A DNA stretch of 64,000 bases. Origin: a virus. The stretch covers positions 1-64,000 of IMG/VR virus record IMGVR_UViG_3300043411_001118; one strand, 5' to 3'. Of this stretch, positions 1-60,762 are shown in pieces (position 1 is the first letter of the stretch; every line of letters begins with the position of its first letter). A program made the position numbers and the translations under genes. The notes beneath the pieces are model-generated. The model was not told where the DNA came from. It did no database searches and saw only the letters and a list, made by a program, of their open reading frames with translations.

Positions 1-14
1 CCAGGGACGATTAT

Positions 15-151
15 TACCAACGGAGCTACCAACGGAGCTACCAACGGAGCTACCAACGGAGCTACCAACGGAGCTACCAACGGAGCTACCAACGGAGCTA
101 CCAACGGAGCTACCAACGGAGCTACCAACGGAGCTACCAACGGAGCTACCA
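15..151. repeat. 12-bp tandem repeat (TACCAACGGAGC) x11.4
   Basis: 11 perfect units from 15 plus a partial TACCA; overlaps the stop of the gp54-like gene. Confidence 0.98.
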
Positions 152-835
152 GTTCCCAGAAGCCCCGTTATTCCCTTCAGTCGGGTTTCCAAGCTCATCA
201 GCAATATCTGACCCAGACTTAGACAGATCATTTAAAACATCCTCATAAGCCCCTGGCTTGCCTCCAGGACCAATATCAATTGAACCAATATCAGACGGCA
301 ACCCAGATCCACCTGTTCCAGTATTGATAACCCTAACATGTCTATGGTATGCAAAAGTAATTGTTAGCTTGTGATAACTGTTGCTTGCCTCATATGACAA
401 CTCTTGGGCTACTATAACCTTTGGATAGGTTTCCTGGAACGTCATGCCATATGATGCAAGTCCATCAACACCCAATTGAAAAACTGTAATGTCTGTAACA
501 TAGTCATCGTAGTAACCAACGTAATTGGAATAAGGATCAATCACTTTCGATTGCCAAGCCTCAAAAAATCTTCTTTCGATCATCGACTCGGAACACATAA
601 AAGTTAAATCGAGATCGTCATACATTCCGGTGTATGGCATTTCTCGTTTTGGCCCAGATAGGATGTGTGGAGTAGTTGCGAGATTTCTTCCAGCAAGTGA
701 TGCGCGTTCGCAGCGCATGGCAATCTGCCTAACACTATCACCAAACGGGGATGTGATATACACAACATAATTGCATGGCCGCGCAAGCCCACCCGCTAAT
801 AAATCATTTTTCATTTCATCGACGTTAAATGCCAT
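146..835 (-). CDS. gp54: T4-like baseplate tail-tube initiator (gp54/gp19 fold)
   Basis: [34 protein letters not shown] motifs; synteny with gp2/gp4/gp48/gp53. Confidence 0.75.
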
Positions 836-1546
836 CTATTTCCTCTTTCTAATATTTCGACGCTGACCAGCTTTTGTTTGTGTTGCGCTCATCTTACGAC
901 CACCACCCTTGGCATTTTGTTTCTTGTCAAACTTCGCGCCTTGAGCCATTGCAATACGTCTTGAATCTTCCCAGACTTTTGATTTTGGTGCTTTCTTAAA
1001 TTGCTCGACAGGTAGGAATAGAGCAATCGGCCACTCAACAGATTCAATCCTTACGAACTTAGATTTCACATGACTAGTTAAGTACATTTTTAAACATGGC
1101 TTGAACCATTTAAATCTTGCAGCCGCAGCCAATGTCTTATAGGAGATATTTAATTTTGTTGAATCATTAAATCGTTTGTTATTCGCAATTGATAACAATG
1201 CATCAAGTAGGACAGCCCGATATTTTGGGGCAAGGTAGTGAAGATTGATTCCAAGGAATCGTCCCTTGCGAGGTGCTGGATCAATTGGGAATATTAATGG
1301 AAACCGATCATAATAGGGTAACGTTGCCTTATGTTTTGGATCATAGGCGAAAAAATACATTCGTCCTAATTGCCAATTTGATCTGAGACGTTCCGATTCT
1401 CCAACCAGATCAGATTCATCAGTACCCTTAGAAAATTTCTCAGTCCTAGCCTTATACCAATTAATTGCTTCTAATGATTTTGCTGGACCAATACCGGCCC
1501 TTAGCGCATCAGCCAAAATTTTATCAAATAGGGAGATATTTTCCAT
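836..1546 (-). CDS. gp2: DNA end protector protein
   Basis: GRMYFFAYDPKHKATLPYYDRFPL and GINLHYL motifs. Confidence 0.92.
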   Translation of the reverse strand: MENISLFDKILADALRAGIGPAKSLEAINWYKARTEKFSKGTDESDLVGESERLRSNWQLGRMYFFAYDPKHKATLPYYDRFPLIFPIDPAPRKGRFLGINLHYLAPKYRAVLLDALLSIANNKRFNDSTKLNISYKTLAAAARFKWFKPCLKMYLTSHVKSKFVRIESVEWPIALFLPVEQFKKAPKSKVWEDSRRIAMAQGAKFDKKQNAKGGGRKMSATQTKAGQRRNIRKRK

Positions 1547-1551
1547 GTCTG

Positions 1552-2109
1552 TTATTTAGGTGTAGATTTTGGTTTCTTCACAGTATTAGGCACTCTTCTA
1601 TACTTCGATTTTTTGACAGGGACGATTCCCTTAATACCAAATTTTTCTAATACATGCTCATCCCAGATTCTAAATTCCCATCCACGAGTTTCGCAGTATC
1701 TTTTCGCAGCTTCCCATTTTGACGTATTTTTGGCGTATCGTAAACATTCACGGATGAACACATGTTCTCGTTTCTCAGCAGATTTCACCGGGGGAGCAAC
1801 TTGGTATGCTGGCTTAATCTCGACAAGAATAGTTCGGCCTGAGTCCAGGACGATTTTTAGATCAACAAAGTAACGATGCAACCTGTTATCAGTCTTGCAC
1901 TTATATCCAATGATTGTTGTTTCTGAACTCCAACCACGGATTTTGTTATGACCATCAAGGAATGAAAATACCCTAAACTCCCAATTGGATCTTGCGATCA
2001 CGTTAGTCGGATCACCCATATACTTCGACGGATTTTTTACATGGTACTGACGATGTTTATCTTGATGTCTAAGTCTTGTTGATTTTCTCATGCAATCGTC
2101 CTGGATCAA
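1552..2109 (-). CDS. gp4: head completion nuclease (TnsA-like); start may be ATG 2091
   Basis: KYMGDPTNVIARSNWE, WSSE, HRYFVD, VEIKP, KWEAA motifs. Confidence 0.92.
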   Translation of the reverse strand: MIQDDCMRKSTRLRHQDKHRQYHVKNPSKYMGDPTNVIARSNWEFRVFSFLDGHNKIRGWSSETTIIGYKCKTDNRLHRYFVDLKIVLDSGRTILVEIKPAYQVAPPVKSAEKREHVFIRECLRYAKNTSKWEAAKRYCETRGWEFRIWDEHVLEKFGIKGIVPVKKSKYRRVPNTVKKPKSTPK

Positions 2110-2181
2110 TCTAAATTCACTTTTGTGAATTTGTTGGATGAACCAACTAAATATTACCGAACATACTTAGCAGCAAACCCA

Positions 2182-2931
2182 ATGCCCAGAACTCGACCAG
2201 CCTCAAAATTAGCCAACAATCCGTACAATAGTCCGAAACATTACTATCCGCAGGATTTGGGCAATGAAGGATCAGAGCCTTACATTCTATTTGATATTCG
2301 AGCCGGTGTTGTTGATAAGCCAACCCCACTAGCTGTAATTGGTCTCCCGATGCCTTTAAAACTTGGGGTTAGTTACGGCGCAGCCTATAAAGAAGTTTCG
2401 ATGACTCTTGATGTTTATAAATCTCTAGCGAATCATATGGAACCGATAACAGAGCTAGGTCGAATTATTGCAAAGGGACTCGACACCACTGGATCAAACC
2501 TATCAGCAGAATTTGAAAGAAGTCGCGGAGCAATTGTCAACCCGCACATGGCCACGCTATTTGAAGGAATTGGATTTCGAAGCTTCACATTTGATTTCAC
2601 ACTAGCAGCGCGAAACAGAGAAGAATCAGATTCAATTCAAAAATTGATTGCGCGTTTCAAGTATCACATGGTTCCTGGTGTTCCGGTCGGGGGCGCATAT
2701 CAAAGAGATCTTTTATATCCGGACAATTTTGTTATTTCATTACATTCACCCGTTCAATCGTACTTGTTCAAAATTGGCACATGCGCGTTAAAAAATATGG
2801 ATGTCGATTATTCCGGCGCAGGACAGACAGCATTTTTTAGAAATAGCGGTGCGCCTGTAATGATTCACTTAACTTTGACATTCCAGGAAATGACGATCAT
2901 GACTAAGGAATTAATTGAGCAAGGTTATTAA
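2182..2931 (+). CDS. gp48: baseplate tail-tube cap
   Basis: NPHMATLFEGIGFRSFTFDF and LTFQE motifs; TAAATA at 2148-2153 favours ATG 2182. Confidence 0.85.
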   Translation: MPRTRPASKLANNPYNSPKHYYPQDLGNEGSEPYILFDIRAGVVDKPTPLAVIGLPMPLKLGVSYGAAYKEVSMTLDVYKSLANHMEPITELGRIIAKGLDTTGSNLSAEFERSRGAIVNPHMATLFEGIGFRSFTFDFTLAARNREESDSIQKLIARFKYHMVPGVPVGGAYQRDLLYPDNFVISLHSPVQSYLFKIGTCALKNMDVDYSGAGQTAFFRNSGAPVMIHLTLTFQEMTIMTKELIEQGY

Positions 2932-2933
2932 CC

Positions 2934-3428
2934 ATGAGACACTTCCGATACTATCCAATTGAAAACTATGAATCGTCCTTGTGCATTGATATAACAGCAC
3001 GATCTAAGGTTAGAGATATCATCAAGGCTAACGTATTCATCTATTATCCGTACACGATAAAAGATGGCGAGAGACCTGATATCATTGCACATAAGTATTA
3101 TGGATCAGCAAATTATACTTGGATGGTTCTATATGCCAATGATATTTTCGATATGACCTTTGATTGGCCTCTCAGTTCTCAGGAATTTAATAGCTATATC
3201 ACTGAAAAATATGGATCTATTAGTGCAGCAAAATTAGAGATTCACCACTACGAAAATTCAGATGGTCTGATTATTGATGAGACCAGTTATCTTGCAGATT
3301 TGTCCGGTTCAATCATTTACTCGTTTGAACACGAAATGACCTTAAACGAAGCAAAGAGAGATATTAAGTTATTTGATGTCTCATACCGGGATCAGTTGGT
3401 TACAGAATTTAGAAGAATCTTCAAATGA
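2934..3428 (+). CDS. gp53: baseplate wedge subunit
   Basis: IKDGERPDIIAHKYYG...WMVLYAN...DWPLS. Confidence 0.92.
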   Translation: MRHFRYYPIENYESSLCIDITARSKVRDIIKANVFIYYPYTIKDGERPDIIAHKYYGSANYTWMVLYANDIFDMTFDWPLSSQEFNSYITEKYGSISAAKLEIHHYENSDGLIIDETSYLADLSGSIIYSFEHEMTLNEAKRDIKLFDVSYRDQLVTEFRRIFK

Positions 3429-4861
3429 TCGACGAAGTGAACGATCTCTCCTATAACCCTCCACTAGAGAAGATCAGGAAAGAACATGACTTTATCATTG
3501 AACAGATAAAGTTAGTCTCTCACACAGGGGCAGAGCATGAACTAAGTTTCATTAGAGATGAGCTAAGGATCTATGCAGACCTATACAGTTCTACAATGTC
3601 CGGATCAATCTCAGTCAATGATGCAGTCGATCTTCCCCAGTTGATTCCGTTACTAGGTGAGGAAAAAATTAAGATCACGTTCACTAGACCAAATGTCACA
3701 GTTGATCCAATTGCGGGGGAAATGGGGGTAACTGTTACTGAGGATATACTTGATTCCATCGATATGGAATTCATCATCTATAAATTGGGGAATAGGGAAC
3801 TTAGTAAAGATAAGCTTCAGAAATATACATTATACTTTACTACCCAAGAGCGATTAAATGATATCAGGACGATTGTTGGAAAGTCGTTTAAGGATAAGCC
3901 GTTTCACGAAGTTGTCGAAATTATCTATGATGAGAGTATCAAGGATGGTTCCAAGGGAGCGAAAGCTAAGGAACTAATTGTAGAGCCGACTAGGTATAGT
4001 CAGAATTTTATAGCTTGTAATAAGAGACCAATTGAATTGATTCAGCAAATATGCTCAAGGGCGATTTCCGATGAAGGGAATGGTTCAAGCTATGTGTTCT
4101 ATGAGGATCAGGAGAATTTTAATTTCATTACCCTGAGTAAGTTAGTTCAAGGTGAAGTCAAAGAACAGTATGTCTATAACCTTGCTAACGTACACCGGCC
4201 TGAAGGTGGATTGATCAAAGCACAGGATATCGCAGCCGATCTTAGGTCCGTTCAGGAATACGAATTCACAAAAGAGTTTGACATCATCGACAAAGCTAAT
4301 AAGGGTTTATACGGATCAAGGCTAATGACCTATGATCTATACAGACAAAAAATTGATGAAGTGGAATTCGATTATCAGGAAGCATTTAAAACCTATCCGC
4401 ATCTTGATGCGAATGATGTACATACACTAGAGGCTGAGATTTTTGGATATCCCGATGCACATTTTATGTGTATGGAAACGGATAAAGAACAGGACACGGT
4501 TCCTTACATTGCGGAAAATGATCCAGATTTGAAACCAAGGTACATTGAAGAGTCTGTCCAGGTTAGAAAGCATCAACAAAATTTACTGGACTATCGCAAG
4601 TGCCAAGTCGTTGTCTCAGGAGATCCACGAAGGAAGCCGGGGGATGTTGTCGAATTTAAACTTCCTTCCGCAATGGGAAATTTGAGTGAGGAATACCCCA
4701 AGGAAGATGACAAGTATCTTTCTGGTAAATACCTAGTCATGGCAGTTTGTCATGTCTTGTTAAAGAACAGATACTCAATGATCATGGAACTTGTTAAAGA
4801 CTCGTTCGTTGAAAAACCTGAGTATGTTGATCCGAATTCACTTTATGAAGACACCTATTAG
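3425..4861 (+). CDS. probable baseplate hub (gp27-like)
   Basis: 478 aa directly after gp53; YVFYE, GD...PGDVV and SGKYLV..V.H motifs typical of this position. Confidence 0.6.
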   Translation: MIDEVNDLSYNPPLEKIRKEHDFIIEQIKLVSHTGAEHELSFIRDELRIYADLYSSTMSGSISVNDAVDLPQLIPLLGEEKIKITFTRPNVTVDPIAGEMGVTVTEDILDSIDMEFIIYKLGNRELSKDKLQKYTLYFTTQERLNDIRTIVGKSFKDKPFHEVVEIIYDESIKDGSKGAKAKELIVEPTRYSQNFIACNKRPIELIQQICSRAISDEGNGSSYVFYEDQENFNFITLSKLVQGEVKEQYVYNLANVHRPEGGLIKAQDIAADLRSVQEYEFTKEFDIIDKANKGLYGSRLMTYDLYRQKIDEVEFDYQEAFKTYPHLDANDVHTLEAEIFGYPDAHFMCMETDKEQDTVPYIAENDPDLKPRYIEESVQVRKHQQNLLDYRKCQVVVSGDPRRKPGDVVEFKLPSAMGNLSEEYPKEDDKYLSGKYLVMAVCHVLLKNRYSMIMELVKDSFVEKPEYVDPNSLYEDTY

Positions 4862-4871
4862 GAAAGGATAA

Positions 4872-5225
4872 ATGAAAACTTACAAGCAAATTTTAAAAGA
4901 ATCAAAAACCTTACTTAGTGAAGATGGATTTCTCAACAGCTTAGAGAGTCTATTTGATCTCAAAAAGGCTAAGCAGAATGTGAAGGCTGGAGTTTCTTTA
5001 ACCAAGGAAATGATTCAAGCCGTCAAAAAACACGATCCAGAAGACAAGGCAACTATAAAAGATTATGAGAATGACATCTACGACTTAGAAGAAATTTTTC
5101 TTGCATTGGATAACGAAGAGGTAACAGAGGCAATTAAGATGTTTGATAAGTTAAGTGGTGATATCGCGGATAGGGTAATCGATCCGGTACAATATAAAAG
5201 ATCTTTTCGCAAAGATTTTTTCTAG
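4872..5225 (+). CDS. putative internal head protein
   Basis: N-terminus MKTYKQILKE resembles the T4 capsid-targeting sequence; in late operon. Confidence 0.55.
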   Translation: MKTYKQILKESKTLLSEDGFLNSLESLFDLKKAKQNVKAGVSLTKEMIQAVKKHDPEDKATIKDYENDIYDLEEIFLALDNEEVTEAIKMFDKLSGDIADRVIDPVQYKRSFRKDFF

Positions 5226-5271
5226 AATCGTCCCTGAGCTACCGAAGGAGCAAGAGCTAAACTTCCCCATC

Positions 5272-6291
5272 ATGAAAAAATACTCCACATTTCTTCTTGA
5301 AGCTCAACTCACACATTCCGATGCAGTTAAAATTCTTGGGCTAAAGCCCGGATACTCTCCAGACGATCTATCCTCGACCTATAAGCTAATGGCTAAACTT
5401 CACCATCCAGATAAAGGTGGGGATGTTGAGCAAATGAAACAGATCAATGCAGCTTATAATTTGCTGAAGGGATCGCCATCTGGAGATGATGAACAAAAAT
5501 CTTGGGACAAGTATCAGGCTAGAAAAAAACGGGATACCGAAAACTTAACTGATATCTTAGAAGTCTTTACTAAGAAATATCAACCAGGAATCTTTAAAGC
5601 CTATTTTGAAGACATCTACGGTATATCATTTAAGATGGAAACTTCATCACATATTGGAATGTATGGAGCTAATGTAAAATCGAAATACTTTAGTGAAGAT
5701 CGCGGAACTGTTATTGATATTGAATTCTATATGTCCGTGAATAGTACCAACGGAGATGCGAAATTAGGACCAGACGAACATTCTGGAGTTGGAATGACTA
5801 TATCCAGGACGATTTTTCATAACAGGAGACGGATCAAACTAGCTCAACAGAACTATTCGTTTGAATCGGACTATCGAGTGTTATCACAACCGGAGAAATT
5901 GTTTCCTAAAGACAAGATGGTTGATAAGTCTAAGAATGCAGGAAATTTGAAATTTAAGAAAGCTGATGCAATCTTAACAATCAAAAATGAGTTAGGTGCA
6001 AGGTGGGATGGAACCCAGTGGATGCGGATTCCCTTGAATGACAAATATACCTTGGTAATTTATCGATTGACTTCAATGGGTATTGGAACATGGGGAACTA
6101 GTGGGATCTACGAAGGGAACCGGCGCGTATCGAATGGACCGTTTCTATTACTAGTTGAGAATCAAAAAATTATCTACTGGTTTGTCGAACAGGTCAAGGG
6201 ACGATTACAGAAAGATATCGACTTAGCGCACATTCAAAAAGTTTTGATCGACATGGGCGCAGAATATAAAGAGTTGATCAAGAATCTTTAG
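5272..6291 (+). CDS. J-domain (DnaJ-like) protein with capsid-targeting-like N-terminus
   Basis: ILGL...YKLMAKLHHPDKGG...INAAYNLL with HPD motif; N-terminus MKKYSTFLLE. Confidence 0.85.
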   Translation: MKKYSTFLLEAQLTHSDAVKILGLKPGYSPDDLSSTYKLMAKLHHPDKGGDVEQMKQINAAYNLLKGSPSGDDEQKSWDKYQARKKRDTENLTDILEVFTKKYQPGIFKAYFEDIYGISFKMETSSHIGMYGANVKSKYFSEDRGTVIDIEFYMSVNSTNGDAKLGPDEHSGVGMTISRTIFHNRRRIKLAQQNYSFESDYRVLSQPEKLFPKDKMVDKSKNAGNLKFKKADAILTIKNELGARWDGTQWMRIPLNDKYTLVIYRLTSMGIGTWGTSGIYEGNRRVSNGPFLLLVENQKIIYWFVEQVKGRLQKDIDLAHIQKVLIDMGAEYKELIKNL

Positions 6292-6451
6292 CGATTTTAG
6301 CAGTAGAATTCGCAACTAATTTTTCGATATCCCATAAAGTCACTTTAGTAGCACCCCTCAGTTCTGGAGTCATTAACGAGTAATGTATTTTACTCCACAC
6401 ATGGCTTTTAATATTGATACGAACTAGTTGGTAATTTGCTTTTGGTTTCAT
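6278..6451 (-). CDS. 57-aa mini-protein missed by the ORF track, paralog of 7092..7292
   Basis: hand translation MKPKANYQLVRINIKSHVWSKIHYSL...KVTLWDIEK matches the paralog. Confidence 0.8.
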   Translation of the reverse strand: MKPKANYQLVRINIKSHVWSKIHYSLMTPELRGATKVTLWDIEKLVANSTAKIAKDS

Positions 6452-6465
6452 ATTCTGGTGTGTCC

Positions 6466-6690
6466 TTATAAAAATATTGGATCGTCACTCCAATAACCAA
6501 GAAAATACGCTGGCATTTCGCGTCTAACAGGGACCATCGAATTTTCTATTGATATGGTAAATAGTTTCTGTGCTGATTGAAATTTTTCATGAATCACAAG
6601 CTTATTATAATACAACAAATCGATCTTGTTCTTACGCTGTAAGGTTTCTGCAATTTTTGCAGATACGCCATTGAGATTAAAATCGTTCAT
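6466..6690 (-). CDS. hypothetical mini-protein
   Basis: array member, ATGA overlap. Confidence 0.65.
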   Translation of the reverse strand: MNDFNLNGVSAKIAETLQRKNKIDLLYYNKLVIHEKFQSAQKLFTISIENSMVPVRREMPAYFLGYWSDDPIFL

Positions 6691-6878
6691 GTTTTATGTG
6701 GGATGTCAGAATTTATCACTAGGGTTTGTAAAGGTTGATAATATTTTTTCACCTCGATTCCCCTTAACGCGCCAATTAATTTCGTGTTGAATATTTTATT
6801 CCAGAACATGTCATTTATTATCCTAGTGGGTCCATTTTCGTTAACAATGTGGTCCAGGTAATTTATCGGTTTATTCAT
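6687..6878 (-). CDS. hypothetical mini-protein
   Basis: array member. Confidence 0.65.
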   Translation of the reverse strand: MNKPINYLDHIVNENGPTRIINDMFWNKIFNTKLIGALRGIEVKKYYQPLQTLVINSDIPHKT

Positions 6879-6884
6879 AATTAT

Positions 6885-7085
6885 TTAAATTCCCAAAAAT
6901 TGATTCAGTAAAAATCTAACACTCGATTGCCCGATATTTGAACGAACCTCCGCGAATACATTGGCATCAGAAAGAATTTTTAAATCCCAACTAATCTCGC
7001 GGGAAATTGATTTGGATATCTTAGTCGAAATTTTTTGATACATTTTATTCTCGATGCGTTCTTCAGGCTCTAATTTTTTGGTCAT
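6885..7085 (-). CDS. hypothetical mini-protein with 4-residue periodicity (KISTKISKSISREIS)
   Basis: array member. Confidence 0.65.
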   Translation of the reverse strand: MTKKLEPEERIENKMYQKISTKISKSISREISWDLKILSDANVFAEVRSNIGQSSVRFLLNQFLGI

Positions 7086-7091
7086 AATTGT

Positions 7092-7292
7092 TTAGCGCAG
7101 AGCGCCCCCGATATCGACATTTCTTTCAGTAATTACGTCCACTAGTAAATTCGCAGTCATTTTTTCGATATCCCAGATAGTCACTTTCCTAGCACCCTTT
7201 ATGTTTGGAGTTATCAATTGGTAATGTATTTTACTCCACACATGGGTTTTAATCTTGATACGAACTTGCTGATGGTTTGAATTGGGTTTCAT
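7092..7292 (-). CDS. hypothetical mini-protein, paralog of 6278..6451
   Basis: start set at ATG 7292 by alignment with the paralog. Confidence 0.75.
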   Translation of the reverse strand: MKPNSNHQQVRIKIKTHVWSKIHYQLITPNIKGARKVTIWDIEKMTANLLVDVITERNVDIGGALR

Positions 7293-7296
7293 ATTC

Positions 7297-7479
7297 TCAT
7301 TCTTCCAACATGACATTTTGAATTTGAGATTGTCTAAGTACGTTGTCTACTTCCGATACTAAAATAATAAAGAGCAATCTTTGAACCTCACCCAAAGGTT
7401 TTGGACCTTTATTAAATAAATTAGTTTCCATGGTTCGTATGCATGTATCAATTTTGAATTTCACATCTTGATTATCCAT
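7297..7479 (-). CDS. hypothetical mini-protein
   Basis: array member. Confidence 0.6.
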   Translation of the reverse strand: MDNQDVKFKIDTCIRTMETNLFNKGPKPLGEVQRLLFIILVSEVDNVLRQSQIQNVMLEE

Positions 7480-7696
7480 GACTGACCATCTTATATACTT
7501 CGGGACTATCCATTCTTGTGATCATCCTTCCGATTCCCCTCATCTTATATTGAATTTCGAATACCGCATCCATAGTTAATTCGTAAGAACCATCACCAAA
7601 ATTAAAAACTTTGTCCTGACCGAGATCGTATTGCATCCGACCTAATACATGGTGGATACGAGAGGATATTTCGGCAATGTCTCTTTCAGTGTCCAT
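7472..7696 (-). CDS. hypothetical mini-protein
   Basis: array member. Confidence 0.6.
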   Translation of the reverse strand: MDTERDIAEISSRIHHVLGRMQYDLGQDKVFNFGDGSYELTMDAVFEIQYKMRGIGRMITRMDSPEVYKMVSHG

Positions 7697-7856
7697 TTTC
7701 GATCCTTTGATGAAGACAAGTTACTTCCCTTATACTCGATTCCATTAGTTGAATCATTAACAAAGTGTAGACAGAAAATTGGAAAGGAAACTCTAGCTCC
7801 GACTTAAAAAATTCATCAAGAGCATTGTAGATGTGCGCCGATTTTTGCTCATTCAT
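7686..7856 (-). CDS. hypothetical mini-protein
   Basis: array member; ATGA-coupled start at 7856. Confidence 0.55.
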   Translation of the reverse strand: MNEQKSAHIYNALDEFFKSELEFPFQFSVYTLLMIQLMESSIREVTCLHQRIENGH

Positions 7857-8083
7857 AATTTCGTTCTCAATCGTCCTTGATGTATCCAAGCTACTACCTG
7901 TGAGGAATTTCTTATTATCTGATTGAACGGACCTCTAACCTCTACTTGAAATAACCAAGAATCATTCACGGAAACATGATTGATAACTTCTGGCATAGAT
8001 TTAATAACAGCCTCGTCAATCGTTTGGGAACATTGTTGGGATATCAACATTCCAGAAATTTTTATGTTGGTTTGATTATTCAT
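7853..8083 (-). CDS. hypothetical mini-protein ending QGRLRTKL
   Basis: array member. Confidence 0.65.
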   Translation of the reverse strand: MNNQTNIKISGMLISQQCSQTIDEAVIKSMPEVINHVSVNDSWLFQVEVRGPFNQIIRNSSQVVAWIHQGRLRTKL

Positions 8084-8089
8084 ACTATC

Positions 8090-8302
8090 CTAAAATCGTC
8101 CCTTGTATAACGCTCGACGAATGTTAAATTCTTGAGAACTTTCCATTCGAGTTTGAATTGCGGCTATTAAATCCGTTACATAGTAATTTGGCATTGGAAT
8201 AATTGTGGATGGCAAACTTTGATTCAAGGAACATTCCAAGGATTCTAATGTCCTTAAAATACAATCCACATCTCCATATTGCATTTTAATTTGTTTGTTC
8301 AT
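8090..8302 (-). CDS. hypothetical mini-protein ending KGRF
   Basis: array member. Confidence 0.65.
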   Translation of the reverse strand: MNKQIKMQYGDVDCILRTLESLECSLNQSLPSTIIPMPNYYVTDLIAAIQTRMESSQEFNIRRALYKGRF

Positions 8303-8303
8303 A

Positions 8304-8504
8304 CTATTCTAACCTCAATCGTCCCGAAACTAATTTTTGAAACCCCAACAAAATCGTCTCATACGCTACACATGTTATATGTGATGACCACGAAATTTTT
8401 GATAGTCCTGGAATATTTGAATCTAGTCTCCACCCGATCTTTTGTAATGTATAATCGATTTCTCCCATCTTATTAAATGCTATGTTTGCTTGATGCTCAT
8501 TCAT
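8304..8504 (-). CDS. hypothetical mini-protein ending SGRLRLE
   Basis: array member; ATG 8504 follows the stop of the upstream ORF. Confidence 0.6.
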   Translation of the reverse strand: MNEHQANIAFNKMGEIDYTLQKIGWRLDSNIPGLSKISWSSHITCVAYETILLGFQKLVSGRLRLE

Positions 8505-8505
8505 A

Positions 8506-8718
8506 TTAAAACTCCGGAAAAATACGAGAGTCTGAACCATGTGCGCCCACATTCCAGATTGTGGCGAGTAATTCCCAATAATAATGTTGTATCGCGTAGT
8601 TAGTAAAGTGTTGAAGGTTTTGGTCCAAGGACGATTCGATAGCTTTAGCTCTTTCAGTAGCTTCAATGGCTATAATAATTCTAGAGTTTCCATCCTCTGT
8701 CCAAAGTTTATTTTCCAT
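8506..8718 (-). CDS. hypothetical mini-protein
   Basis: array member. Confidence 0.6.
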   Translation of the reverse strand: MENKLWTEDGNSRIIIAIEATERAKAIESSLDQNLQHFTNYAIQHYYWELLATIWNVGAHGSDSRIFPEF

Positions 8719-8952
8719 TTATTTTAACCTCAATCGTCCCTTGTCTAAATTCCTCAATCTCATCAAAATTTCCTGGTCCAACCAAACTACCATACTATAC
8801 TCAAGTTCTGGAGTCTGTTCAAATAATGTCCAATCGATTCTTTCGACCCCGTTATCAATGTGTACAACCCGACTCAGACCAAAATTTGGACCAACGACAT
8901 CCACACTTACTTGTTTTGAATCAAGAGTTTTGTCTCGTGGCATTATTTTCAT
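8719..8952 (-). CDS. hypothetical mini-protein ending KGRLRLK
   Basis: array member. Confidence 0.65.
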   Translation of the reverse strand: MKIMPRDKTLDSKQVSVDVVGPNFGLSRVVHIDNGVERIDWTLFEQTPELEYSMVVWLDQEILMRLRNLDKGRLRLK

Positions 8953-9149
8953 AGTATCCTTCTTTGATTGGCCAATTTCTCTGGAGATGATTGATTCAAC
9001 ATTAAATTTAACTCCTGGATACGATTTTCGAATCGAAGCTGTTGGTATGCCGATACTTCAACCAAATCAAAAAATCCAACAAATATCTTGTGCTTTAAAG
9101 ATTCTCGAATCGCCCACGAATATCGAACACTGGAGTTTGGCTTATTCAT
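8949..9149 (-). CDS. hypothetical mini-protein
   Basis: array member; ATG 9149 overlaps the end of the upstream ORF. Confidence 0.55.
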   Translation of the reverse strand: MNKPNSSVRYSWAIRESLKHKIFVGFFDLVEVSAYQQLRFENRIQELNLMLNQSSPEKLANQRRIL

Positions 9150-9345
9150 TTGGTGTAAATCCAAAATTCGATCTATTGACTTCTCGCATATTCTGAAACC
9201 AAGTGAATAAATTCGTATGAACCACGCCAATAAAATCATAAGGAATTTGTCGAAATGATCCATGACGAAACTCATTTTCGATATGTTCTCTAATCCCCGC
9301 CGCAACTTCCTCGGAAATTATATGTGATTGAAGTTGATGATCCAT
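9142..9345 (-). CDS. hypothetical mini-protein
   Basis: array member. Confidence 0.6.
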   Translation of the reverse strand: MDHQLQSHIISEEVAAGIREHIENEFRHGSFRQIPYDFIGVVHTNLFTWFQNMREVNRSNFGFTPNE

Positions 9346-10487: not shown

Positions 10488-10996
10488 ACATGAACCTCCA
10501 CATTGATTTCAGAAACATTCTTTCCTTGCAGTTCTCGAATCATCCAAGCTTCAACAATTGAAGGGATGTTCGAAAAGTGAGTCCAGATATTTTCCTCTCC
10601 CTCGATTGTCGCCTGATATCCTCCGTAATTGTTCGATCTAAAAACAACGAACCCCGGCGCAATTTCGACACCAGAAGAATTTGTTAACGCCTCAATCAAT
10701 GGTGTGATTTCAGTTTCTTTCTTTTTGAATTGTTCGAGATTTCTTAACGCTCGAATCGCTTCCCAGTCGTACTCCACAAAAACGAACGTGTTCCCACCAG
10801 ACAAAATTTCTTGACTGTATTCGCAATATCGAACCGACTCATATTTCTTAGCAATCGTTTTGATTGGTTCGATGTTGATCGATAAATCCTTGATTCTTAC
10901 ATTGACCGATGAATAGTCACTTGTGACGCTAACCTGTGACGGTTTGATTCCAAGTGCCTTAAGTTCTTTTCTGATTTCCTTAGCTTCCTGTGTCAT
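10484..10996 (-). CDS. early hypothetical protein (LPD29-like N-terminus)
   Basis: AKEIRKELKA..VSV.SDYSSVNV; AGGAG RBS; first gene after an early promoter. Confidence 0.6.
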   Translation of the reverse strand: MTQEAKEIRKELKALGIKPSQVSVTSDYSSVNVRIKDLSINIEPIKTIAKKYESVRYCEYSQEILSGGNTFVFVEYDWEAIRALRNLEQFKKKETEITPLIEALTNSSGVEIAPGFVVFRSNNYGGYQATIEGEENIWTHFSNIPSIVEAWMIRELQGKNVSEINVEVHV

Positions 10997-11023
10997 AATG
11001 TATCTCCTATCAATTTCAATTAT

Positions 11024-11052
11024 AAAGTACCAAAATCATCCAAACTTGTCAA
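11024..11052 (-). promoter_or_regulatory. sigma70-type early promoter
   Basis: TTGACA-17-TACTTT, spacer contains TTTGGATGATTT. Confidence 0.85.
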
Positions 11053-11063
11053 GAATTAAAACC

Positions 11064-17894: not shown

Positions 17895-17921
17895 AATGTA
17901 TCTCCTATCAATTTCAATTAT

Positions 17922-50060: not shown

Positions 50061-51086
50061 CTAGCACCGCTTCCACATTTTAAACTTAGCTAACGCCAAT
50101 GCCCCAGAGAATGTGTTGTCATCAATTATTTTGTGAACCTCTTGAGAGGATTTCCCAGATAAAACCATGTCATTGATATCCTTATCAACAATCGTCCTTG
50201 GCCATACCACCACATATCCCCCAGACTTAATGACCTGTTCCTGATTTTTACAGACCTCAAAATTCCTTGGCTGATTGTCAAACACATACACCGGATCTTC
50301 TATTTTGATTCCTGTCTCATCCTCAAAAGTTTTGAGCTTCTGTTTTAGAGAAGCATTCATTGCAGCTAGAGCATTTGGGAGAAATAAAGAATCAATTGGA
50401 CCCTCAACCACGTATGTTTTTTTGTTTGGTGTCCAAGTATCAATCCCATACAACATAGCATCGTCATCGAGTTTTGTTGTGATATAACGTAGTACATTTG
50501 GATCTGTTGAAAGTGTGCGCCCCTGGATCGCAACAACCCCACCAGACTTATTAAAAACGGGAATAACTATTCTCGACTCTACATTTCGTTCTTTGTATCT
50601 TGTGGGAAATGTCGTATTAACCAATCCCCAGAAATCGTCCGTGTAATATAATCTGTCATATTTTTCAATTGGAATTTTTCTTCCATCCAAATACTTTCGC
50701 GCCGGATGCTCAACATCTAATTTTGAAATCAATGTTGAACCAACAAATTTTTTCTCAACATCTTTCTTAACTGGTCGAATTAATTTTTTCTGAGTCGGCC
50801 TCTGTGGATTGACCTTATTTTTATGAAGTTCGAGGATGTACTCTCGATGTAACGATGGATCGATATCCTTCAAGAAATTATAAAACGATTTTGCAATCCC
50901 ACAATTATGACAATAGAAATATATCTCCTGATTTTTTCCAAGGAAATATCCGCGAGTTTTTCTCTTACTCTTTTTTGAATCTCCACAAAATGGACAAGAA
51001 CAAACCCAGAGTCCAACATTTTTCTGTTTAAAATTTCTTAATTGATTCGAAACGAATCTTAGATATTGAACCTCAAGATAATACAT
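50061..51086 (-). CDS. gp61: DNA primase
   Basis: CPFCGDS..K.RG, CHNCG, EGPIDSLF, DNQPRN, KDINDM. Confidence 0.96.
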   Translation of the reverse strand: MYYLEVQYLRFVSNQLRNFKQKNVGLWVCSCPFCGDSKKSKRKTRGYFLGKNQEIYFYCHNCGIAKSFYNFLKDIDPSLHREYILELHKNKVNPQRPTQKKLIRPVKKDVEKKFVGSTLISKLDVEHPARKYLDGRKIPIEKYDRLYYTDDFWGLVNTTFPTRYKERNVESRIVIPVFNKSGGVVAIQGRTLSTDPNVLRYITTKLDDDAMLYGIDTWTPNKKTYVVEGPIDSLFLPNALAAMNASLKQKLKTFEDETGIKIEDPVYVFDNQPRNFEVCKNQEQVIKSGGYVVVWPRTIVDKDINDMVLSGKSSQEVHKIIDDNTFSGALALAKFKMWKRC

Positions 51087-52010: not shown

Positions 52011-52242
52011 CTTTGGATGGATCTATAAGTCCTTGAATATACTCAAGAAGTACAGAAGAATTGCTCATCTCTCCCCAGGACGATTTCTCGCCTCCGATCT
52101 TCACACACTCCCTATTACAAAAATCTTGAGCGTTTTTTAAAATGAAGTTGGCGCAGGATGTGTATGCCTCGATCAAATTTGGATCGAGCTTCTGAACAGA
52201 TTCATACGAAAATTTCCTAGCTTCTAGACCAACTGCACTCAT
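52000..52242 (-). CDS. hypothetical protein
   Basis: coupled ORF. Confidence 0.6.
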   Translation of the reverse strand: MSAVGLEARKFSYESVQKLDPNLIEAYTSCANFILKNAQDFCNRECVKIGGEKSSWGEMSNSSVLLEYIQGLIDPSKDEV

Positions 52243-52937
52243 GGATTCACCAATTGATATCTAACATTTTTTACTTTTCTTGGAATGAGATATTGTGGAC
52301 CAGTCTTTTTAAACCATCTTCGAAAAATATCTTTCTTAAGATTGCTCAACCGATCAATGAATAACGTTCCAATCAAATGATCCATTTCGTGCTGAACACA
52401 ACACGCCGCCTTTCCGGTGAAGGTTTCTGTTTTTTCTTCACCTGTTCTAGTCTGATATTTTAACGTCACACTATCAAATCTGTTTACCTTTTCAGACCAC
52501 CCATGAAATGACAAACATCCCTCAATGGAAATGATCTCTCCGCTTGTATCAACAAATGATGGATTGATAAATTCTCTTGCGTCTGTGAAATTATCTGAAA
52601 CATCCATCACAAACATGCTCATGTTAAGTCCGACCTGAACCGCCGCAACGCCATAGCCGCCGTATGCATACATTGTGTTTTTCATTCGGTCTAGGCGAAT
52701 TGCAACATCTTCATCAAAGATTGTTACTTTATTTGCAATCGTCCTGAGTGGACCCACTCCCAATTGAGAATTTAACTCCTTACTTGTCAGAGTCAAAATC
52801 TTATATAACTCAACAACGTCTCTTTCATCTGTTGTTAATTTTGGAGTCTCTATTGGAGTCTCTATTGGAGTCTCTATTGGAGTCTCTATTGGAGTCTCTA
52901 TTGGAGTCTCTATTGGAGTCACGGCATTTTCTTGCAT
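52239..52937 (-). CDS. def: peptide deformylase with N-terminal (TPIE)n extension
   Basis: GYGVAAVQVG, EGCLS, QHEMDH. Confidence 0.95.
   Translation of the reverse strand: MQENAVTPIETPIETPIETPIETPIETPIETPKLTTDERDVVELYKILTLTSKELNSQLGVGPLRTIANKVTIFDEDVAIRLDRMKNTMYAYGGYGVAAVQVGLNMSMFVMDVSDNFTDAREFINPSFVDTSGEIISIEGCLSFHGWSEKVNRFDSVTLKYQTRTGEEKTETFTGKAACCVQHEMDHLIGTLFIDRLSNLKKDIFRRWFKKTGPQYLIPRKVKNVRYQLVNP
52841..52920. repeat. 12-bp tandem repeat (TTGGAGTCTCTA) x6.7 inside def
   Basis: perfect units, in frame. Confidence 0.97.
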
Positions 52938-54386: not shown

Positions 54387-54836
54387 TTAGTTATAAGCAA
54401 ACTCCATTCCGTATTCGTGTAATAGTGGTTCCAATACCGATTTCAGATGTGGATTGAAACAGTATATAGGTATGTTAAACTTCAGCGCCCAACGGATTTC
54501 TGTGGCCATTTGAAATGTAATTTCATCTCCGGCCAACCACAACTCATCAAAAAATCCTTTCTCAAAATATACATAATTCATTTCAACAGCTTTTTGAAGT
54601 TCTCCTGCATGTGCTTCATCAACTAAACGGTATGACATGTAGTATGGGGTTATTGGATTAACGAACGGATAATTTTTTATAATGTGGTGAACGAGATTTT
54701 CGATTTTGATCAAGTTGCCGTCTAGGTTATCTCCGATAGTTGGATGAGAAATGTAGGCAACGAACCGGGACGATTTGACTTGATCGTAGAGATAACTTTT
54801 ATTCTTAGCTTTACTCATGTTGTTAACCGTATGCAA
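54387..54836 (-). CDS. nucleoside deoxyribosyltransferase-like (DUF4406-type) protein
   Basis: YISHP..G....N, DELWL.GD....M..EI..A....IP. Confidence 0.65.
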   Translation of the reverse strand: MHTVNNMSKAKNKSYLYDQVKSSRFVAYISHPTIGDNLDGNLIKIENLVHHIIKNYPFVNPITPYYMSYRLVDEAHAGELQKAVEMNYVYFEKGFFDELWLAGDEITFQMATEIRWALKFNIPIYCFNPHLKSVLEPLLHEYGMEFAYN

Positions 54837-57207: not shown

Positions 57208-57966
57208 TTATTGAATGGAGCTAATTAGCTTTCTGGCACTAACAATTTCAAAAAAGGTTCTACCTATGATAGAATTCAACTTATCCAGTCTGAACAGGGT
57301 ATCTCCCCAGATTGGTCTATAATGTAGACAGTTCTCCGATGGAACAGCTAACAATTGACCTGTCGTTCTCATCGTCCCTCGACCATCTCCCATCCGTAAG
57401 GGAGAATCGTCCTGGTCCAATTGCATCAATACGTCCATCAATTCGATTGGAGTCTTACTCATCGACATCGATATTTCTGGAATTTTTATATCATCTCGAT
57501 TAGAAATGACTGTTGACGATGACCTTGATAACTCTTTAACAGCCGATGAATATACACCATCTATATTACTGCCATCTAACACAAATGCTTTCTCGGAATT
57601 CATCACCAAAACATTTCCTGTGATCTCTTGTTCCTTTAAAATCTCAATTGACTCTTCTGGAGTTGATGCATATAAAGCTTTTCTGACTCTCAGACCCTCC
57701 GGTGAATTGTATTTTCTTTCTTCTCGATTCGCCCGTCTAATATCGGATATCTCATTTTCGATATCGATTCTTGGACAAACCAAAACAACTAAACCGTGTT
57801 CGTTTAATCCTTCGGAGAATCGACTGACCTCATCCCAAAGGAACAAACGTTCGATATCATTTCGAAAACTCTTTCTGATTCTGATCCTTGGCTTATAATT
57901 ACAGTCTCGATTCTTCGCCGCGACAAATCCAACACCATTAAAATATTTGCAAACTATAGTTGACAT
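57208..57966 (-). CDS. Ntn-hydrolase-fold peptidase/amidase
   Basis: AKNRD, EGLNEHGL, TTGQ motifs. Confidence 0.7.
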   Translation of the reverse strand: MSTIVCKYFNGVGFVAAKNRDCNYKPRIRIRKSFRNDIERLFLWDEVSRFSEGLNEHGLVVLVCPRIDIENEISDIRRANREERKYNSPEGLRVRKALYASTPEESIEILKEQEITGNVLVMNSEKAFVLDGSNIDGVYSSAVKELSRSSSTVISNRDDIKIPEISMSMSKTPIELMDVLMQLDQDDSPLRMGDGRGTMRTTGQLLAVPSENCLHYRPIWGDTLFRLDKLNSIIGRTFFEIVSARKLISSIQ

Positions 57967-58742
57967 TATCCAAACCTTTTCTGATAAGCATTAAAAAGCG
58001 AGAACTGTTTTTTCACCATAGATGCCCAAGATTTTGCTCGATTTTGGAGTGAGTGATCTCCCTCGATGAAAGTTGCGTAATATGCATTAATCAAATATGA
58101 AACGACATCTGCTGAGTATGTGTCATCGGGAAGATTGTATTTTTTAATCGCCGCCTGTGATACATCCCAATATGCATTTATCCGCTTATCAATGTCATCA
58201 GGAAGAATGAGTCGCGGAACATCATCCACCAAATAATCGATAAACCCATAAAATTTAGTAACTGGAACACCACTAAATTTCAGAACTATCCCCTGTACCC
58301 ACGGCTGAAATTCTATGTCTTGAAAAATATATTTAGCACCATCCAACCCACGTCCACCTGTCTCATAATTAAGAGTTTTCCAAGGCGTTAGTTTTTGTCT
58401 GGAGTGTATGAATTCGTGGATAAATGTTGATAGTAGGGTTTGTGCAGTTCTGGGCTTATTCCATATCGAATCGTGAACCGTAGGAACTCCCAAATAAATT
58501 TCATCTGGTGTCCTGAATTCTCCGTTAATTGATCCCGATATACGAAACACAACCTCCATTTGCGGCCCAAATTGTTTCGTTTCGTTTGAAAGTTGATCGG
58601 CCATTGATACCAGATCAACATTACCCTTCGCCCCCATGTCACGAATATTTTTTGAAATAATTTCTTTGGACGATTGATAGAGTTTGTAAAACTTATCAAT
58701 GAACGATTCATTCAGAAACGATTTAAAGGAACGCCCTGACAT
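57966..58742 (-). CDS. zincin-like metalloprotease with capsid-targeting-like N-terminus
   Basis: HEFIHSRQ and downstream E in QDIEFQPW; N-terminus RSFKSFLNE. Confidence 0.7.
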   Translation of the reverse strand: MSGRSFKSFLNESFIDKFYKLYQSSKEIISKNIRDMGAKGNVDLVSMADQLSNETKQFGPQMEVVFRISGSINGEFRTPDEIYLGVPTVHDSIWNKPRTAQTLLSTFIHEFIHSRQKLTPWKTLNYETGGRGLDGAKYIFQDIEFQPWVQGIVLKFSGVPVTKFYGFIDYLVDDVPRLILPDDIDKRINAYWDVSQAAIKKYNLPDDTYSADVVSYLINAYYATFIEGDHSLQNRAKSWASMVKKQFSLFNAYQKRFG

Positions 58743-59536
58743 TATCCAAACCTTCTTCGATATATCTGAAACAATTTAAATTCTTTTTTAATAACCTTGA
58801 TCCAAGACGTTGCTCGACTTTTTAACTCATCATTACCAATTTGGAATGTCGTATTATATACATCTATTAAATTCGAAACTGCGTTTGTTGTTGATGGATC
58901 TTTAGGAATATTAAATTTTTGTAAGATTTTTGAAGTAGCGACAACAATTTCAAATTGTCGTTGACTATCTGGACCCAAAAAAGAAAATTTCATTTCTGGA
59001 ACTTCGGTTATTAGTGAATCGACAAACGCATTAAAATTTCCTTCGGGAACATCTATAAATCTTAAAATGGTTCCCTGTATCCACGGTTGAAATTCCAAAT
59101 CTTGGAACATATATTTGGCTTGTTTTAGTGAAGATCTGCCACGTTGAATATAGGATGATTTAAAATATTCCGCTGAAATTTCTTGCCGAGAATGAATGAA
59201 CTCATGAATTATGGTCGAAATCAATTTGGTTATTATATGTTCTTTTCTCCAAACAGGATCAACAAACATCGGAACATATAAATTTATTTTTTTATCGTCT
59301 GAAAAGTATACTCCGGAGATTGAGATGTTATTTTTTCTATTTTGTATAAACTCAATTTCAATCTTATCTCCAAACCTAGAAAATTCCAAAGAAATTTTCC
59401 TCTCAATTTTAGGAATGGCATCAGAAATTTTGTTGTTTGCTACTAGCTCATCATTCAAAATTTTTGTGATATTCTGGTAAACAGTATAGAACTTGTCCAC
59501 GAACGATTCATTTAGGAATGTCTTGAATGTTCGCAC
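58742..59536 (-). CDS. zincin-like metalloprotease with capsid-targeting-like N-terminus, paralog of 57966..58742
   Basis: HEFIHSRQ, QDLEFQPW; N-terminus MRTFKTFLNE; TAAATA 59546-59551. Confidence 0.7.
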   Translation of the reverse strand: MRTFKTFLNESFVDKFYTVYQNITKILNDELVANNKISDAIPKIERKISLEFSRFGDKIEIEFIQNRKNNISISGVYFSDDKKINLYVPMFVDPVWRKEHIITKLISTIIHEFIHSRQEISAEYFKSSYIQRGRSSLKQAKYMFQDLEFQPWIQGTILRFIDVPEGNFNAFVDSLITEVPEMKFSFLGPDSQRQFEIVVATSKILQKFNIPKDPSTTNAVSNLIDVYNTTFQIGNDELKSRATSWIKVIKKEFKLFQIYRRRFG

Positions 59537-59544
59537 TGGACCAC

Positions 59545-60762
59545 TTATTTAAAATCTAATTTTTCGAACGCCTCATCGATTGACTCTTTTTTTAAGTCAT
59601 CGGATTTTTTCTGAACATCTTTCTCTCGACGATCCGCTTCACGCTCTTGTTGTTTTTTCTTGAAGTCTTTCTCTCGCGCCTTTTCTAAATCGTAGGCTTG
59701 CTTATCCTTAATTCGATCAAGATCGTCTGTTTGTTTTTCTTTTGTTTTCTGAGCCTCTGTCTTATCGAGATCTGAACCTTCCTCTTGGATGTCTACAATA
59801 TACTGAGTTGCTAAAAACTTAGTAGCACCCACTCGATCTCCATTAAACAAAACTTTTGGTGCTAATAGTGGTTGGTGCATATTTCCGGATTTAGTAATGA
59901 TATACCGACCATTTTCTTTACGAACAAAAATAGTTCCATTGACCGTATCTGCAACAGCAATTTCTTCATCACGATCAAGTATTTTAATATCTTCTTTTGC
60001 CGTTCTCAATCGAAGACCATCTATTTCTGATGGTGACAGACTGCCAGACTCGTACATAGATTTTTTGTTTTTAGGATCGTCTGGATCTGATCCATAAATT
60101 TTATCTGGATCTAGTTTGTATTTCTTTATTTCTTTATCAATACCAGCTTTAATTTGTTTTGCTAATGTTACGTTTCCGTGTTTTCTGGTTATTTTATAGT
60201 CAGAAACCCAATGAGCTAAACCCTTTAATACACCATCAGGAACCGACTCATAAAGATTTCCTTCAATATAATTCTTTGCTAAGAAGCTTTTAGCCCCGCC
60301 CCTATCGCCATGAAACACCACTTGTTTTGGTTTATCTTTTGATTGAGTCGTAATGCGATACTGTCCATTAAAAATACTGATGCCCAGTGGTCCAATTTCC
60401 GTATCAAAAACCTGTGCATGTGGAGATTTGTTACGATTCTTTTGAAACTGGTTATCTGCAACTTGAAGATCTCGTTCGGCCTGATCTTGTCGGAGTTTTT
60501 CTGAAGACTCTGTTATGGTGTCTTTCCCCTTGATCATATCAGTCAATTCTTTTTTGATTTTCTTAGCAACTTCCCCGCGCCATGAGGATGCATTGGAAAG
60601 AAATCCCGCAAGAATAGATGATGCACTGTCCATAATATACTTGTCTGACATCGAGTGAAGATCATACATAGCCTCAAGATATGGCTTAGCTGCAAAATTT
60701 ACTGGCTTCCAGTTGGCTTTGATCTCATATGCGATTGTTGAAATTGGACGATTTTTTGCCAC
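59545..60762 (-). CDS. modular putative internal head polyprotein
   Basis: short modules separated by ITE/LYE/MYE/IQE; one module duplicated (F.GDR.GA..FLA..YI). Confidence 0.55.
   Translation of the reverse strand: MAKNRPISTIAYEIKANWKPVNFAAKPYLEAMYDLHSMSDKYIMDSASSILAGFLSNASSWRGEVAKKIKKELTDMIKGKDTITESSEKLRQDQAERDLQVADNQFQKNRNKSPHAQVFDTEIGPLGISIFNGQYRITTQSKDKPKQVVFHGDRGGAKSFLAKNYIEGNLYESVPDGVLKGLAHWVSDYKITRKHGNVTLAKQIKAGIDKEIKKYKLDPDKIYGSDPDDPKNKKSMYESGSLSPSEIDGLRLRTAKEDIKILDRDEEIAVADTVNGTIFVRKENGRYIITKSGNMHQPLLAPKVLFNGDRVGATKFLATQYIVDIQEEGSDLDKTEAQKTKEKQTDDLDRIKDKQAYDLEKAREKDFKKKQQEREADRREKDVQKKSDDLKKESIDEAFEKLDFK

Follow-up and report, generated by a model that had tools for sequence, protein, structure and literature searches.

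An exact, strongly over-represented DNA word, possibly a Chi-like strand-specific signal, in the genome of a distant T4-like phage

T4-type phages are a textbook model of recombination-dependent replication, and we know of no genome-wide DNA signal in this group. The nearest described cases come from phages rich in the Chi site: in LLS, a Chi-rich lambdoid phage of Escherichia coli, Chi occurs once per 1.86 kb, and its sites are clustered and non-random in orientation (Zheng et al. 2025, PMC12315714); in some lambdoid phages Chi is concentrated between the origin and the packaging site, and selection against Chi is seen in those lambdoid phages that encode recombinases and RecBCD inhibitors of their own (Bobay et al. 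2013, PMC3784561). Here we examine a dispersed 8-nucleotide (nt) word, AATCGTCC, in the genome of a distant T4-like phage. The stretch analysed at the outset (hereafter the window) is the first 64 kb of the 103,807-nt IMG/VR record IMGVR_UViG_3300043411_001118, and the analysis was extended to the whole record and to the closed genome to which it belongs, where the word is found ∼15 times more often than expected by chance.

All 38 copies listed in a preliminary description of the window are exact, 24 of them reading AATCGTCC on the + strand and 14 reading GGACGATT (the − strand copies), compared with 2.6 expected under an order-3 Markov model (G+C content 37.9%), and AATCGTCC is the most deviant 8-mer of the window. 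The 103.8-kb record as a whole has 60 copies. Searching IMG/VR for paired occurrences of the word brought to light a second contig, IMGVR_UViG_3300043411_001266 (50,974 nt), both ends of which match both ends of the record over exactly 127 nt at 100% identity (window 1–127 and record 103681–103807). Joining the two contigs, whose completeness as separate records was put at 57% and 29% by CheckV, yields a closed circle of 154,527 nt. This closed genome contains 84 copies of AATCGTCC, 43 on the + and 41 on the − strand, where Markov models of orders 1–3 expect 5–6; the density is one copy per 1.84 kb (544 per Mb) and the mean spacing per strand is ∼3.6 kb. One junction of the circle falls in a tandem repeat with a 12-nt unit, GGAGCTACCAAC, present in at least 11 copies from window 13–150 onward into the end of the second contig, and the number of units there has probably been collapsed by the assembler. 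The tandem repeat, like the 45–70-nt promoter cassettes described below, is an element separate from the word, and the flanks of the copies are unrelated beyond ∼18 nt, which rules out a tandem or dispersed repeat element as their source.

The enrichment also survives controls that take coding into account. The record has 55 genic copies, compared with 6.3 ± 2.3 (maximum 13) when synonymous codons are shuffled within genes and 3.1 ± 1.8 when codon order is shuffled. For the 1,680 words that share the composition of AATCGTCC, counts have a median of 2, and the runner-up, with 20 occurrences, is CAATCGTC, an overlapping shift of AATCGTCC itself; the word read backwards occurs once in the record. 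AATCGTCC thus stands out among 8-mers of its own composition, and its over-representation, for which the preliminary description had named Markov and codon-shuffle nulls as the possible refuters, is confirmed.

Copies of the word are present in all six reading frames and in both orientations relative to genes, with 76 of the 84 copies of the closed genome being genic (44 antisense and 32 sense) and 8 non-coding. If an opportunity is defined as a place where the protein sequence permits the word by means of synonymous codons, then AATCGTCC is carried at 55 of 141 opportunities in the record and at 75 of 216 in the closed genome (35–39%). Asn-Arg-Pro tripeptides are spelled AAT CGT CC in seven of eight cases, and several codons inside the word are among the less used (ACG, 13% of Thr codons; TCC, 11% of Ser; CGT, 12% of Arg). 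Because all six frames are used, 35–39% of the opportunities are taken and less-used codons are often chosen, selection on the DNA and not on the protein, as had been suggested from the window, is supported. A protein motif or codon bias is ruled out by the six-frame usage and the shuffles, and an RNA-level signal as a complete explanation by the enrichment of both orientations. The four window copies that lie outside genes (at 5, 5226, 11469 and 18510) all read AATCGTCCCTG, as previously described.

The 24 one-letter variants of AATCGTCC are at background level, in the genome as a whole and in its most word-rich part alike, and since they are not enriched the 8-mer core is read exactly. Around the core, significant preferences are found at position −1 (not T) and, on the 3′ side in a fixed register, at +8 (Y), +9 (K), +10 (G), +11 (g), +13 (C), +15 (A) and +18 (Y). 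The extended motif, V-AATCGTCC-Y-K-G-g-n-C-n-A, is asymmetric as a whole and spans ∼17–20 bp. It had earlier been proposed that the word continues as one to three pyrimidines and then G, and 32 of the 38 window copies do fit that wording; however, re-anchoring the copies on the first G weakens the flank positions, so that a flank in fixed register is the better description.

The copies are concentrated in a hot zone of 16 kb that spans the junction, beginning at 147.4 kb of the closed genome and ending at 9.3 kb, with positions 1–9300 as its part in the window; 28 copies fall within it (scan statistic P < 1/3000), and outside it there are ∼4–5 copies per 10 kb. Synonymous opportunities are used in 25 of 34 cases (74%) within the zone compared with 50 of 182 (27%) elsewhere (Fisher P = 7e-7). 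The copies switch direction inside the zone such that they point away from it on both sides, with the best centre at ∼2–7 kb. To the right of the centre, over 30–40 kb, there are 13–16 + copies and 1–2 − copies, and to its left 8–9 + and 18–19 −; with all centres scanned, permutation controls applied and five arm lengths tried, the permutation P at the scanned centre is 0.002–0.003 for each arm length. Within the window this appears as an arc at 6500–46500 whose 18 copies include 16 on the + strand, directed away from the hot zone. In the arc from 46 to 130 kb, gene direction and G/C skew remain unchanged while the word directions are mixed, so that the bias in word direction cannot be attributed to strand composition, nor to gene direction alone. 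Together with the longer one-sided flank, the hot zone and the switch narrow the options towards a strand-specific signal around one locus.

That the sequence belongs to a T4-like phage, as the preliminary description had it, is borne out by comparisons of gp41 and gp23 and by a T4-type gene set. The gp41-type helicase is ∼43% identical to cyanomyovirus homologues, and the gp23 capsid protein has 54% identity to that of Methylophilales phage Melnitz, the nearest cultured relative (MZ577097.1). Family searches identified UvsX, a split family-B DNA polymerase (two open reading frames (ORFs), record 65158–66288 and 66575–68083), a clamp and clamp loader, gp46/47, ligase and UvsW among the replication and recombination genes, with a DnaG-type primase encoded alongside the gp41 helicase, at window 50061–51086 and 62369–63781; the structural genes include the gp20 portal, tail sheath, gp15, a neck protein, gp5, gp6 and gp8. 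A gp2-type DNA end protector is encoded at window 836–1546 (phrog_429, E = 5e-53) and bears on any model that involves a host RecBCD. The gp20 portal gene (record 96132–99260) is interrupted by an intein with an HNH endonuclease domain. The phage is a distant member of the group: searches with gp41 and gp23 found no close relatives in IMG/VR, and the best gp41 match among 5.8 billion proteins has 45% identity. No psbA gene was found in it. Its strong Shine-Dalgarno sequences, sigma-70-type promoters and an LpxR-like gene, relatives of which occur at 44–54% identity and exclusively on Logan/ENA contigs (up to 109 kb), point to a Gram-negative host outside the Bacteroidota.

Some enzyme probably reads the DNA itself. 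Our favoured interpretation, which we hold tentatively and with well below even confidence, is that AATCGTCC is a strand-specific Chi-like signal, recognised by an enzyme of replication or recombination, with its copies distributed around a probable origin. The word with its 3′ flank (Y-K-G-g-n-C-n-A), which is under strong selection in the phage DNA, would then be a signal active in one orientation only, its exact letters being recognised on one strand by an enzyme moving along the DNA. Recognition by an enzyme fits better than a degenerate binding site because the core is exact and non-palindromic and its variants are at background. That the enzyme travels is suggested by the combination of an exact asymmetric 8-mer, a one-sided flank, a density of ∼1 per 1.8 kb, clustering and local polarity, as in Chi, the FtsK-orienting polar sequences (KOPS) and the SpoIIIE recognition sequences (SRS). 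The likeliest reader would be a helicase-nuclease acting at double-strand ends, either of the host RecBCD/AddAB type or the phage's own gp46/gp47, and the word would be the functional counterpart of a Chi site, protecting replicating or broken phage DNA and channelling it into recombination-dependent replication. The presence of UvsX, UvsW and gp46/47 argues that the phage relies on recombination. Because the copies are densest in the hot zone and point away from it, we infer that this zone may hold a replication origin or some other starting place of forks or DNA ends. It is possible, though we would not bet on it, that the word is the virus's own signal, read by the phage primosome or the gp46/gp47 nuclease and arranged around a phage origin; if so, it would represent a viral equivalent of Chi or KOPS, undescribed for T4-like phages.

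A number of observations weigh against a Chi-like signal arranged around an origin. The polarity of the copies is local and not genome-wide, since neither the global cumulative-range strand test on the closed genome (P = 0.125) nor runs tests of strand order were significant. Gaps of 7–11.5 kb are free of copies. The gene blocks on both flanks of the hot zone are transcribed towards it, so that the effects of replication and transcription are confounded there, and the zone revealed no intergenic region resembling an origin. AATCGTCC is not G-rich, unlike the known Chi words, and we are aware of no sequence-specific control of gp46/gp47. In addition, none of the bacteria sampled was enriched for the word: not the 401 evenly drawn Gammaproteobacteria (8-mer; maximum 70 per Mb versus 544 in the phage; four unpublished genomes included), the 201 Cyanobacteriota (11-mer AATCGTCCYKG), the 151 Alphaproteobacteria (12-mer AATCGTCCCTGG) or 10 other genomes (8-mer or 11-mer). 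This sample of ∼760 genomes, which is ∼0.4% of the species in the collection, lowers the odds of a host-borne word without excluding it. Finally, the trend among lambdoid phages (PMC3784561) runs contrary to what is seen here, this phage having its own recombinase set (UvsX, gp46/47, UvsW) and a gp2 end protector.

Searches with a pair pattern of the word covered a wider range of sequences. Among the matches listed from genomes of 185,579 species there were local tandem repeats in genes and no enriched clade. The same scan of viral contigs returned the second half of the phage's own genome, tandem repeats on three large contigs and one phage family. In the three contigs, of 200–280 kb, the word sits within coding tandem repeats of 12 or 24 nt, and an unrelated contig of 62% G+C (L053, 2997–3229) has five copies of TTTCAATCGTCCCGG in 230 nt, partly as inverted repeats in an operator- or iteron-like arrangement; the resemblance of both to the word is coincidental. 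The phage family consists of smaller phages from IMG/VR (mostly sample 3300045988; contigs of ∼20–48 kb with 40–46% G+C) in which AATCGTCC occurs 4–7 times at conserved positions, in most contigs almost exclusively on one strand, and without the flank; this weak enrichment may come from coding constraints. Melnitz has no copy of AATCGTCC. Its own top word, TTAGGGTC, occurs 16 times versus ∼1 expected, always on the strand opposite the genes (16:0) and five times within one 0.8-kb stretch; it looks like a different thing and is not analogous to AATCGTCC. No description of the word was found in the searchable literature, nor do we know of any signal of this kind described for T4-like phages, in agreement with the preliminary description.

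Several of these results bear on what else the word might be. Its lineage specificity, with no copy in Melnitz and no enrichment in any sampled bacterium, is what one would look for in the landing site of a phage-encoded, sequence-specific DNA-binding protein, that is, a self-mark serving packaging choice, genome organisation or protection, with a reader that might be packed in the capsid and would load mainly in the hot zone. We regard this as doubtful, though a serious contender. An asymmetric motif of ∼17 bp, a hot zone resembling a cluster of loading sites and the equal overall use of the two strands (43:41) would suit such a protein; yet binding sites usually tolerate mismatches, whereas the one-letter variants of the word are not enriched, a protein on double-stranded DNA has no obvious need for a local direction switch, and no candidate reader was found among the genes scanned. 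The direction switch is more readily accommodated if the word is a preferred start site of the primosome (gp61-type primase with gp41 helicase) on the lagging-strand template, since near the hot zone the copies lie on the presumed lagging-strand template of forks leaving the zone. Here the 5′-GTC-3′ in the core would be a T7-type primase site with six template bases 5′ of it, giving the primer pppACGAUU, with the 3′ flank serving as the region of contact. T4 and T7 primers (gp61 and gp4) start with AC, as this one would, both a DnaG-type primase and the gp41 helicase are encoded, and the mean spacing per strand is compatible with the idea. Even so, we judge a primosome site to be unlikely: DnaG-type primases read ∼3 bases, and a fully specific 8-mer is unexpected for them; gaps of up to 11.5 kb would stay unprimed; direction is mixed beyond ∼45 kb; and Melnitz, with the same kind of primase, has no comparable word on two strands (TTAGGGTC being 16:0).

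Exact, asymmetric recognition without enriched near-matches is typical of DNA-modifying and nicking enzymes, and the word could in principle be the target of a phage or host methyltransferase, or of a nickase as in T5-like phages or phage tf, with the sites serving a further role such as clamp loading for late transcription or packaging control. We consider this quite unlikely, given that targets of such enzymes are normally avoided or neutral in phages and not 15-fold enriched, and that the direction switch is left unexplained. The genome does encode a 256-amino-acid adenine-methyltransferase-like protein (PF02384, 29 bits versus a cut-off of 20.4; weak Eco57I-type match) and a second, fragment-like ORF of 156 amino acids that resembles a small methyltransferase; the former, however, has no recognisable target-recognition domain and is closest by sequence to KsgA/Erm rRNA methyltransferases, and no C5 methyltransferase was found in the phage. 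The 256-amino-acid protein, whose nearest solved structures are also KsgA/Erm, is encoded between a DUF2786/DUF7168 protein on its 5′ side and a DUF6874 protein on its 3′ side, at 138117–139584 (+) of the closed genome. Very improbable, in our view, is a word without function, arising incidentally from biased mutation or repair (a very-short-patch-like drive), from the avoidance of restriction sites or from protein and codon composition. HIP1-like words have been proposed to stem from biased repair, and this genome is under strong selection on short words, with 34 hexamers absent or nearly so. But codon and protein composition account for just 3–6 copies; a hot zone with 74% use, a direction switch and a phased flank would not be expected; and the one-letter neighbours of the word are not depleted, contrary to conversion by a repair drive, which is thereby ruled out.

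The hexamer gaps deserve a description of their own. With expectations of 8–48 occurrences, the 34 hexamers are absent or found once in the closed genome, where chance predicts 0.02 such cases. Sixteen are palindromic, including GGATCC, CGATCG, CTCGAG, CAGCTG, CTGCAG, GTCGAC, AGTACT, TGCGCA, GAGCTC and GCATGC, and 18 are asymmetric, including GCGATG, CAGCTC, GAGGAG, GCAGTG, GGCGGA and CCGCTC. This pattern looks like the avoidance of many restriction sites. It is not unique to this phage, as Melnitz has 64 such avoided hexamers.

The contexts of the individual window copies vary along the sequence (coordinates are those of the 8-nt core, followed by the strand and, for genic copies, the residues encoded there). 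At the left end, the copy at 5–12 (−) is non-genic, reads AATCGTCCCTGG and adjoins the 12-nt tandem repeat at the contig end. It is followed by 1257–1264 (+, GRF), antisense in the gp2-like gene, 1620–1627 (−, GIVP), sense in a head-closure gene, 1848–1855 (−, KIVL), sense, and 2094–2101 (+, QDDC), antisense; a baseplate wedge gene has a sense copy at 2971–2978 (+, ESS) and a tail protein gene an antisense copy at 3867–3874 (−, RTI). The intergenic copy at 5226–5233 (+) lies 46 nt upstream of a gene start at 5272, and antisense copies follow at 5807–5814 (−, RTI) and 6199–6206 (−, GRL), the latter marking the minimum of the cumulative strand curve. An array of mini-ORFs has an antisense copy at 7869–7876 (+, RTI), and two more antisense copies lie at mini-ORF ends (8094–8101, +, GRF; 8317–8324, +, GRL), after which come the sense copies at 8629–8636 (−, NRP) and 8732–8739 (+, NRP). 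To the right of the hot zone, two intergenic copies, at 11469–11476 (+) and 18510–18517 (+), respectively adjoin the −35 side of an early-promoter cassette and occupy the loop of an inverted repeat, TTGAGG...CCTCAA. The copies at 14353–14360 (+, GTI), 15695–15702 (+, GRL), 24599–24606 (+, QDDL), 28828–28835, 30580–30587 and 34096–34103 (each +, GTI), 36202–36209 (+, overlapping a stop codon after MDD), 41152–41159 (+, KDDF), 42465–42472 (+, PDDS) and 45827–45834 (+, TDDL) are antisense, the last of them marking the maximum of the cumulative strand curve, and that at 37316–37323 (−) is sense (KSS) or non-coding, depending on the gene call. In the remainder of the window, a ribonucleotide reductase gene carries two sense copies (48083–48090, −, QSS; 48348–48355, −, NRP) and the primase gene two antisense ones (50190–50197, +, RTI; 50633–50640, +, TDDF); further sense copies lie at 52078–52085 and 54768–54775 (both −, KSS), 58668–58675 (−, QSS) and 60746–60753 (−, NRP), and further antisense copies at 52737–52744 (+, RTI) and 57405–57412 (+, QDDS). 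Among neighbouring copies at most 500 bp apart in the closed genome, nine pairs are convergent (+ then −) versus three divergent (P = 0.02 uncorrected, which may be chance), and three of these pairs are spaced 361–367 bp.

The promoter cassettes are 45–70 nt long and 80–93% alike. They are located at window 10991–11059, 11397–11465, 15514–15584, 17889–17951 and 18427–18475 and at record 89189–89232 and 90835–90870, with four more in the second contig. On the gene strand their layout is TTGACA, ∼17 nt, a −10-like CATATAT, a strong GGAG ribosome-binding site and a start codon. They probably represent early promoters of the sigma-70 type organised as modules, in the manner of the mobile promoter cassettes known from T4-type phages. 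Inspection of 11 cassette regions found the word close to two (11469; 18510, at a distance of 35 nt) and absent from the others, which rules it out as an early promoter element. A perfect hairpin, GGGACGA-gaaa-TCGTCCC (record 91440–91475, gene strand), lies just downstream of the gp23 gene, with the word as its descending arm and a T-rich run after it, and looks like an intrinsic terminator following the major capsid gene.

At one-third of the places where its proteins permit it, and at three-quarters of those in the hot zone, this phage maintains the exact word, accepting less-used codons to do so. Were a host nuclease the reader, the word would represent a Chi-like sequence from an uncultured host and would offer a route to finding that host; it would also mean that Chi-like sites can still accumulate in a phage equipped with recombination genes of its own. 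Should a phage protein read it instead, the word would be a new viral self-signal, directly testable with oligonucleotides and purified proteins.

How, then, does the word compare with described systems? Comparisons had been drawn beforehand with Chi, HIP1, uptake sequences and matS. HIP1 and matS are palindromes, and as the word and its flank are asymmetric, a signal of the HIP1, matS or parS type is ruled out; the likeness to Chi and to uptake sequences holds in statistical terms, but no host genome carrying the word was found. Stoperators, the asymmetric words of ∼13 bp that are present 20–30 times per genome in Cluster A mycobacteriophages and are read by a phage protein (L5 gp71), are found mainly outside genes and face one way with respect to transcription. 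In this phage, 76 of the 84 copies are genic, 32 in sense and 44 in antisense, which rules out a stoperator or operator array. The word resembles primase sites in that the core contains GTC and the predicted primer starts with AC (T7 gp4, 5′-GTC-3′; T4 gp61, 5′-GTT-3′), but known DnaG-type sites have 3–5 bases, and we know of no enrichment of them in the form of long exact words, in contrast to the 8-mer described here.

The DNA uptake sequences (DUS) of Neisseriaceae and the uptake signal sequences (USS) of Pasteurellaceae share more with the word: ∼1 copy per 1–2 kb, on both strands and in all reading frames, an exact core with a weaker one-sided flank in fixed register, and a high share of coding opportunities used. 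They are, however, a property of competent bacterial genomes, built up by uptake and recombination, while the present genome is that of a lytic-type T4-like phage; they have no hot zone or direction switch, and none of the sampled bacteria is enriched for AATCGTCC. DUS often occur as inverted pairs forming terminators, whereas here the sole copy with a hairpin and a T-run is that at record position 91453. KOPS, SRS and the Chi skew are asymmetric 8-mers that flip at one locus and point away from it, as the word does, and they are read by enzymes travelling along the DNA, as we propose for the word. They belong to bacterial chromosomes and are skewed over whole replichores, compared with ∼40 kb on each side of the zone here, and we know of no FtsK-like reader in T4-like phages.

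Chi itself is a short, exact, non-palindromic word, and so is AATCGTCC, with its one-letter variants at background. The Chi-rich phages LLS (E. coli) and MD8 (Pseudomonas aeruginosa) resemble this phage in having an exact non-palindromic 8-mer at ∼1 per 1.8–1.9 kb that is present within genes, concentrated in one region of the genome and non-random in orientation. They differ from it in lacking their own recombination genes and in carrying the known Chi of a known host, whereas this phage has UvsX, gp46/47, UvsW and gp2, AATCGTCC corresponds to none of the known Chi words, and the bacterial sample yielded no host that carries it. Their sites are also almost all in one orientation relative to the cos end, whereas here the strands are used 43:41 with a local switch only. 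We therefore place the word among the genome-wide selected DNA words of the Chi and uptake-sequence type, of which it would be something new if its reader is encoded by the phage.

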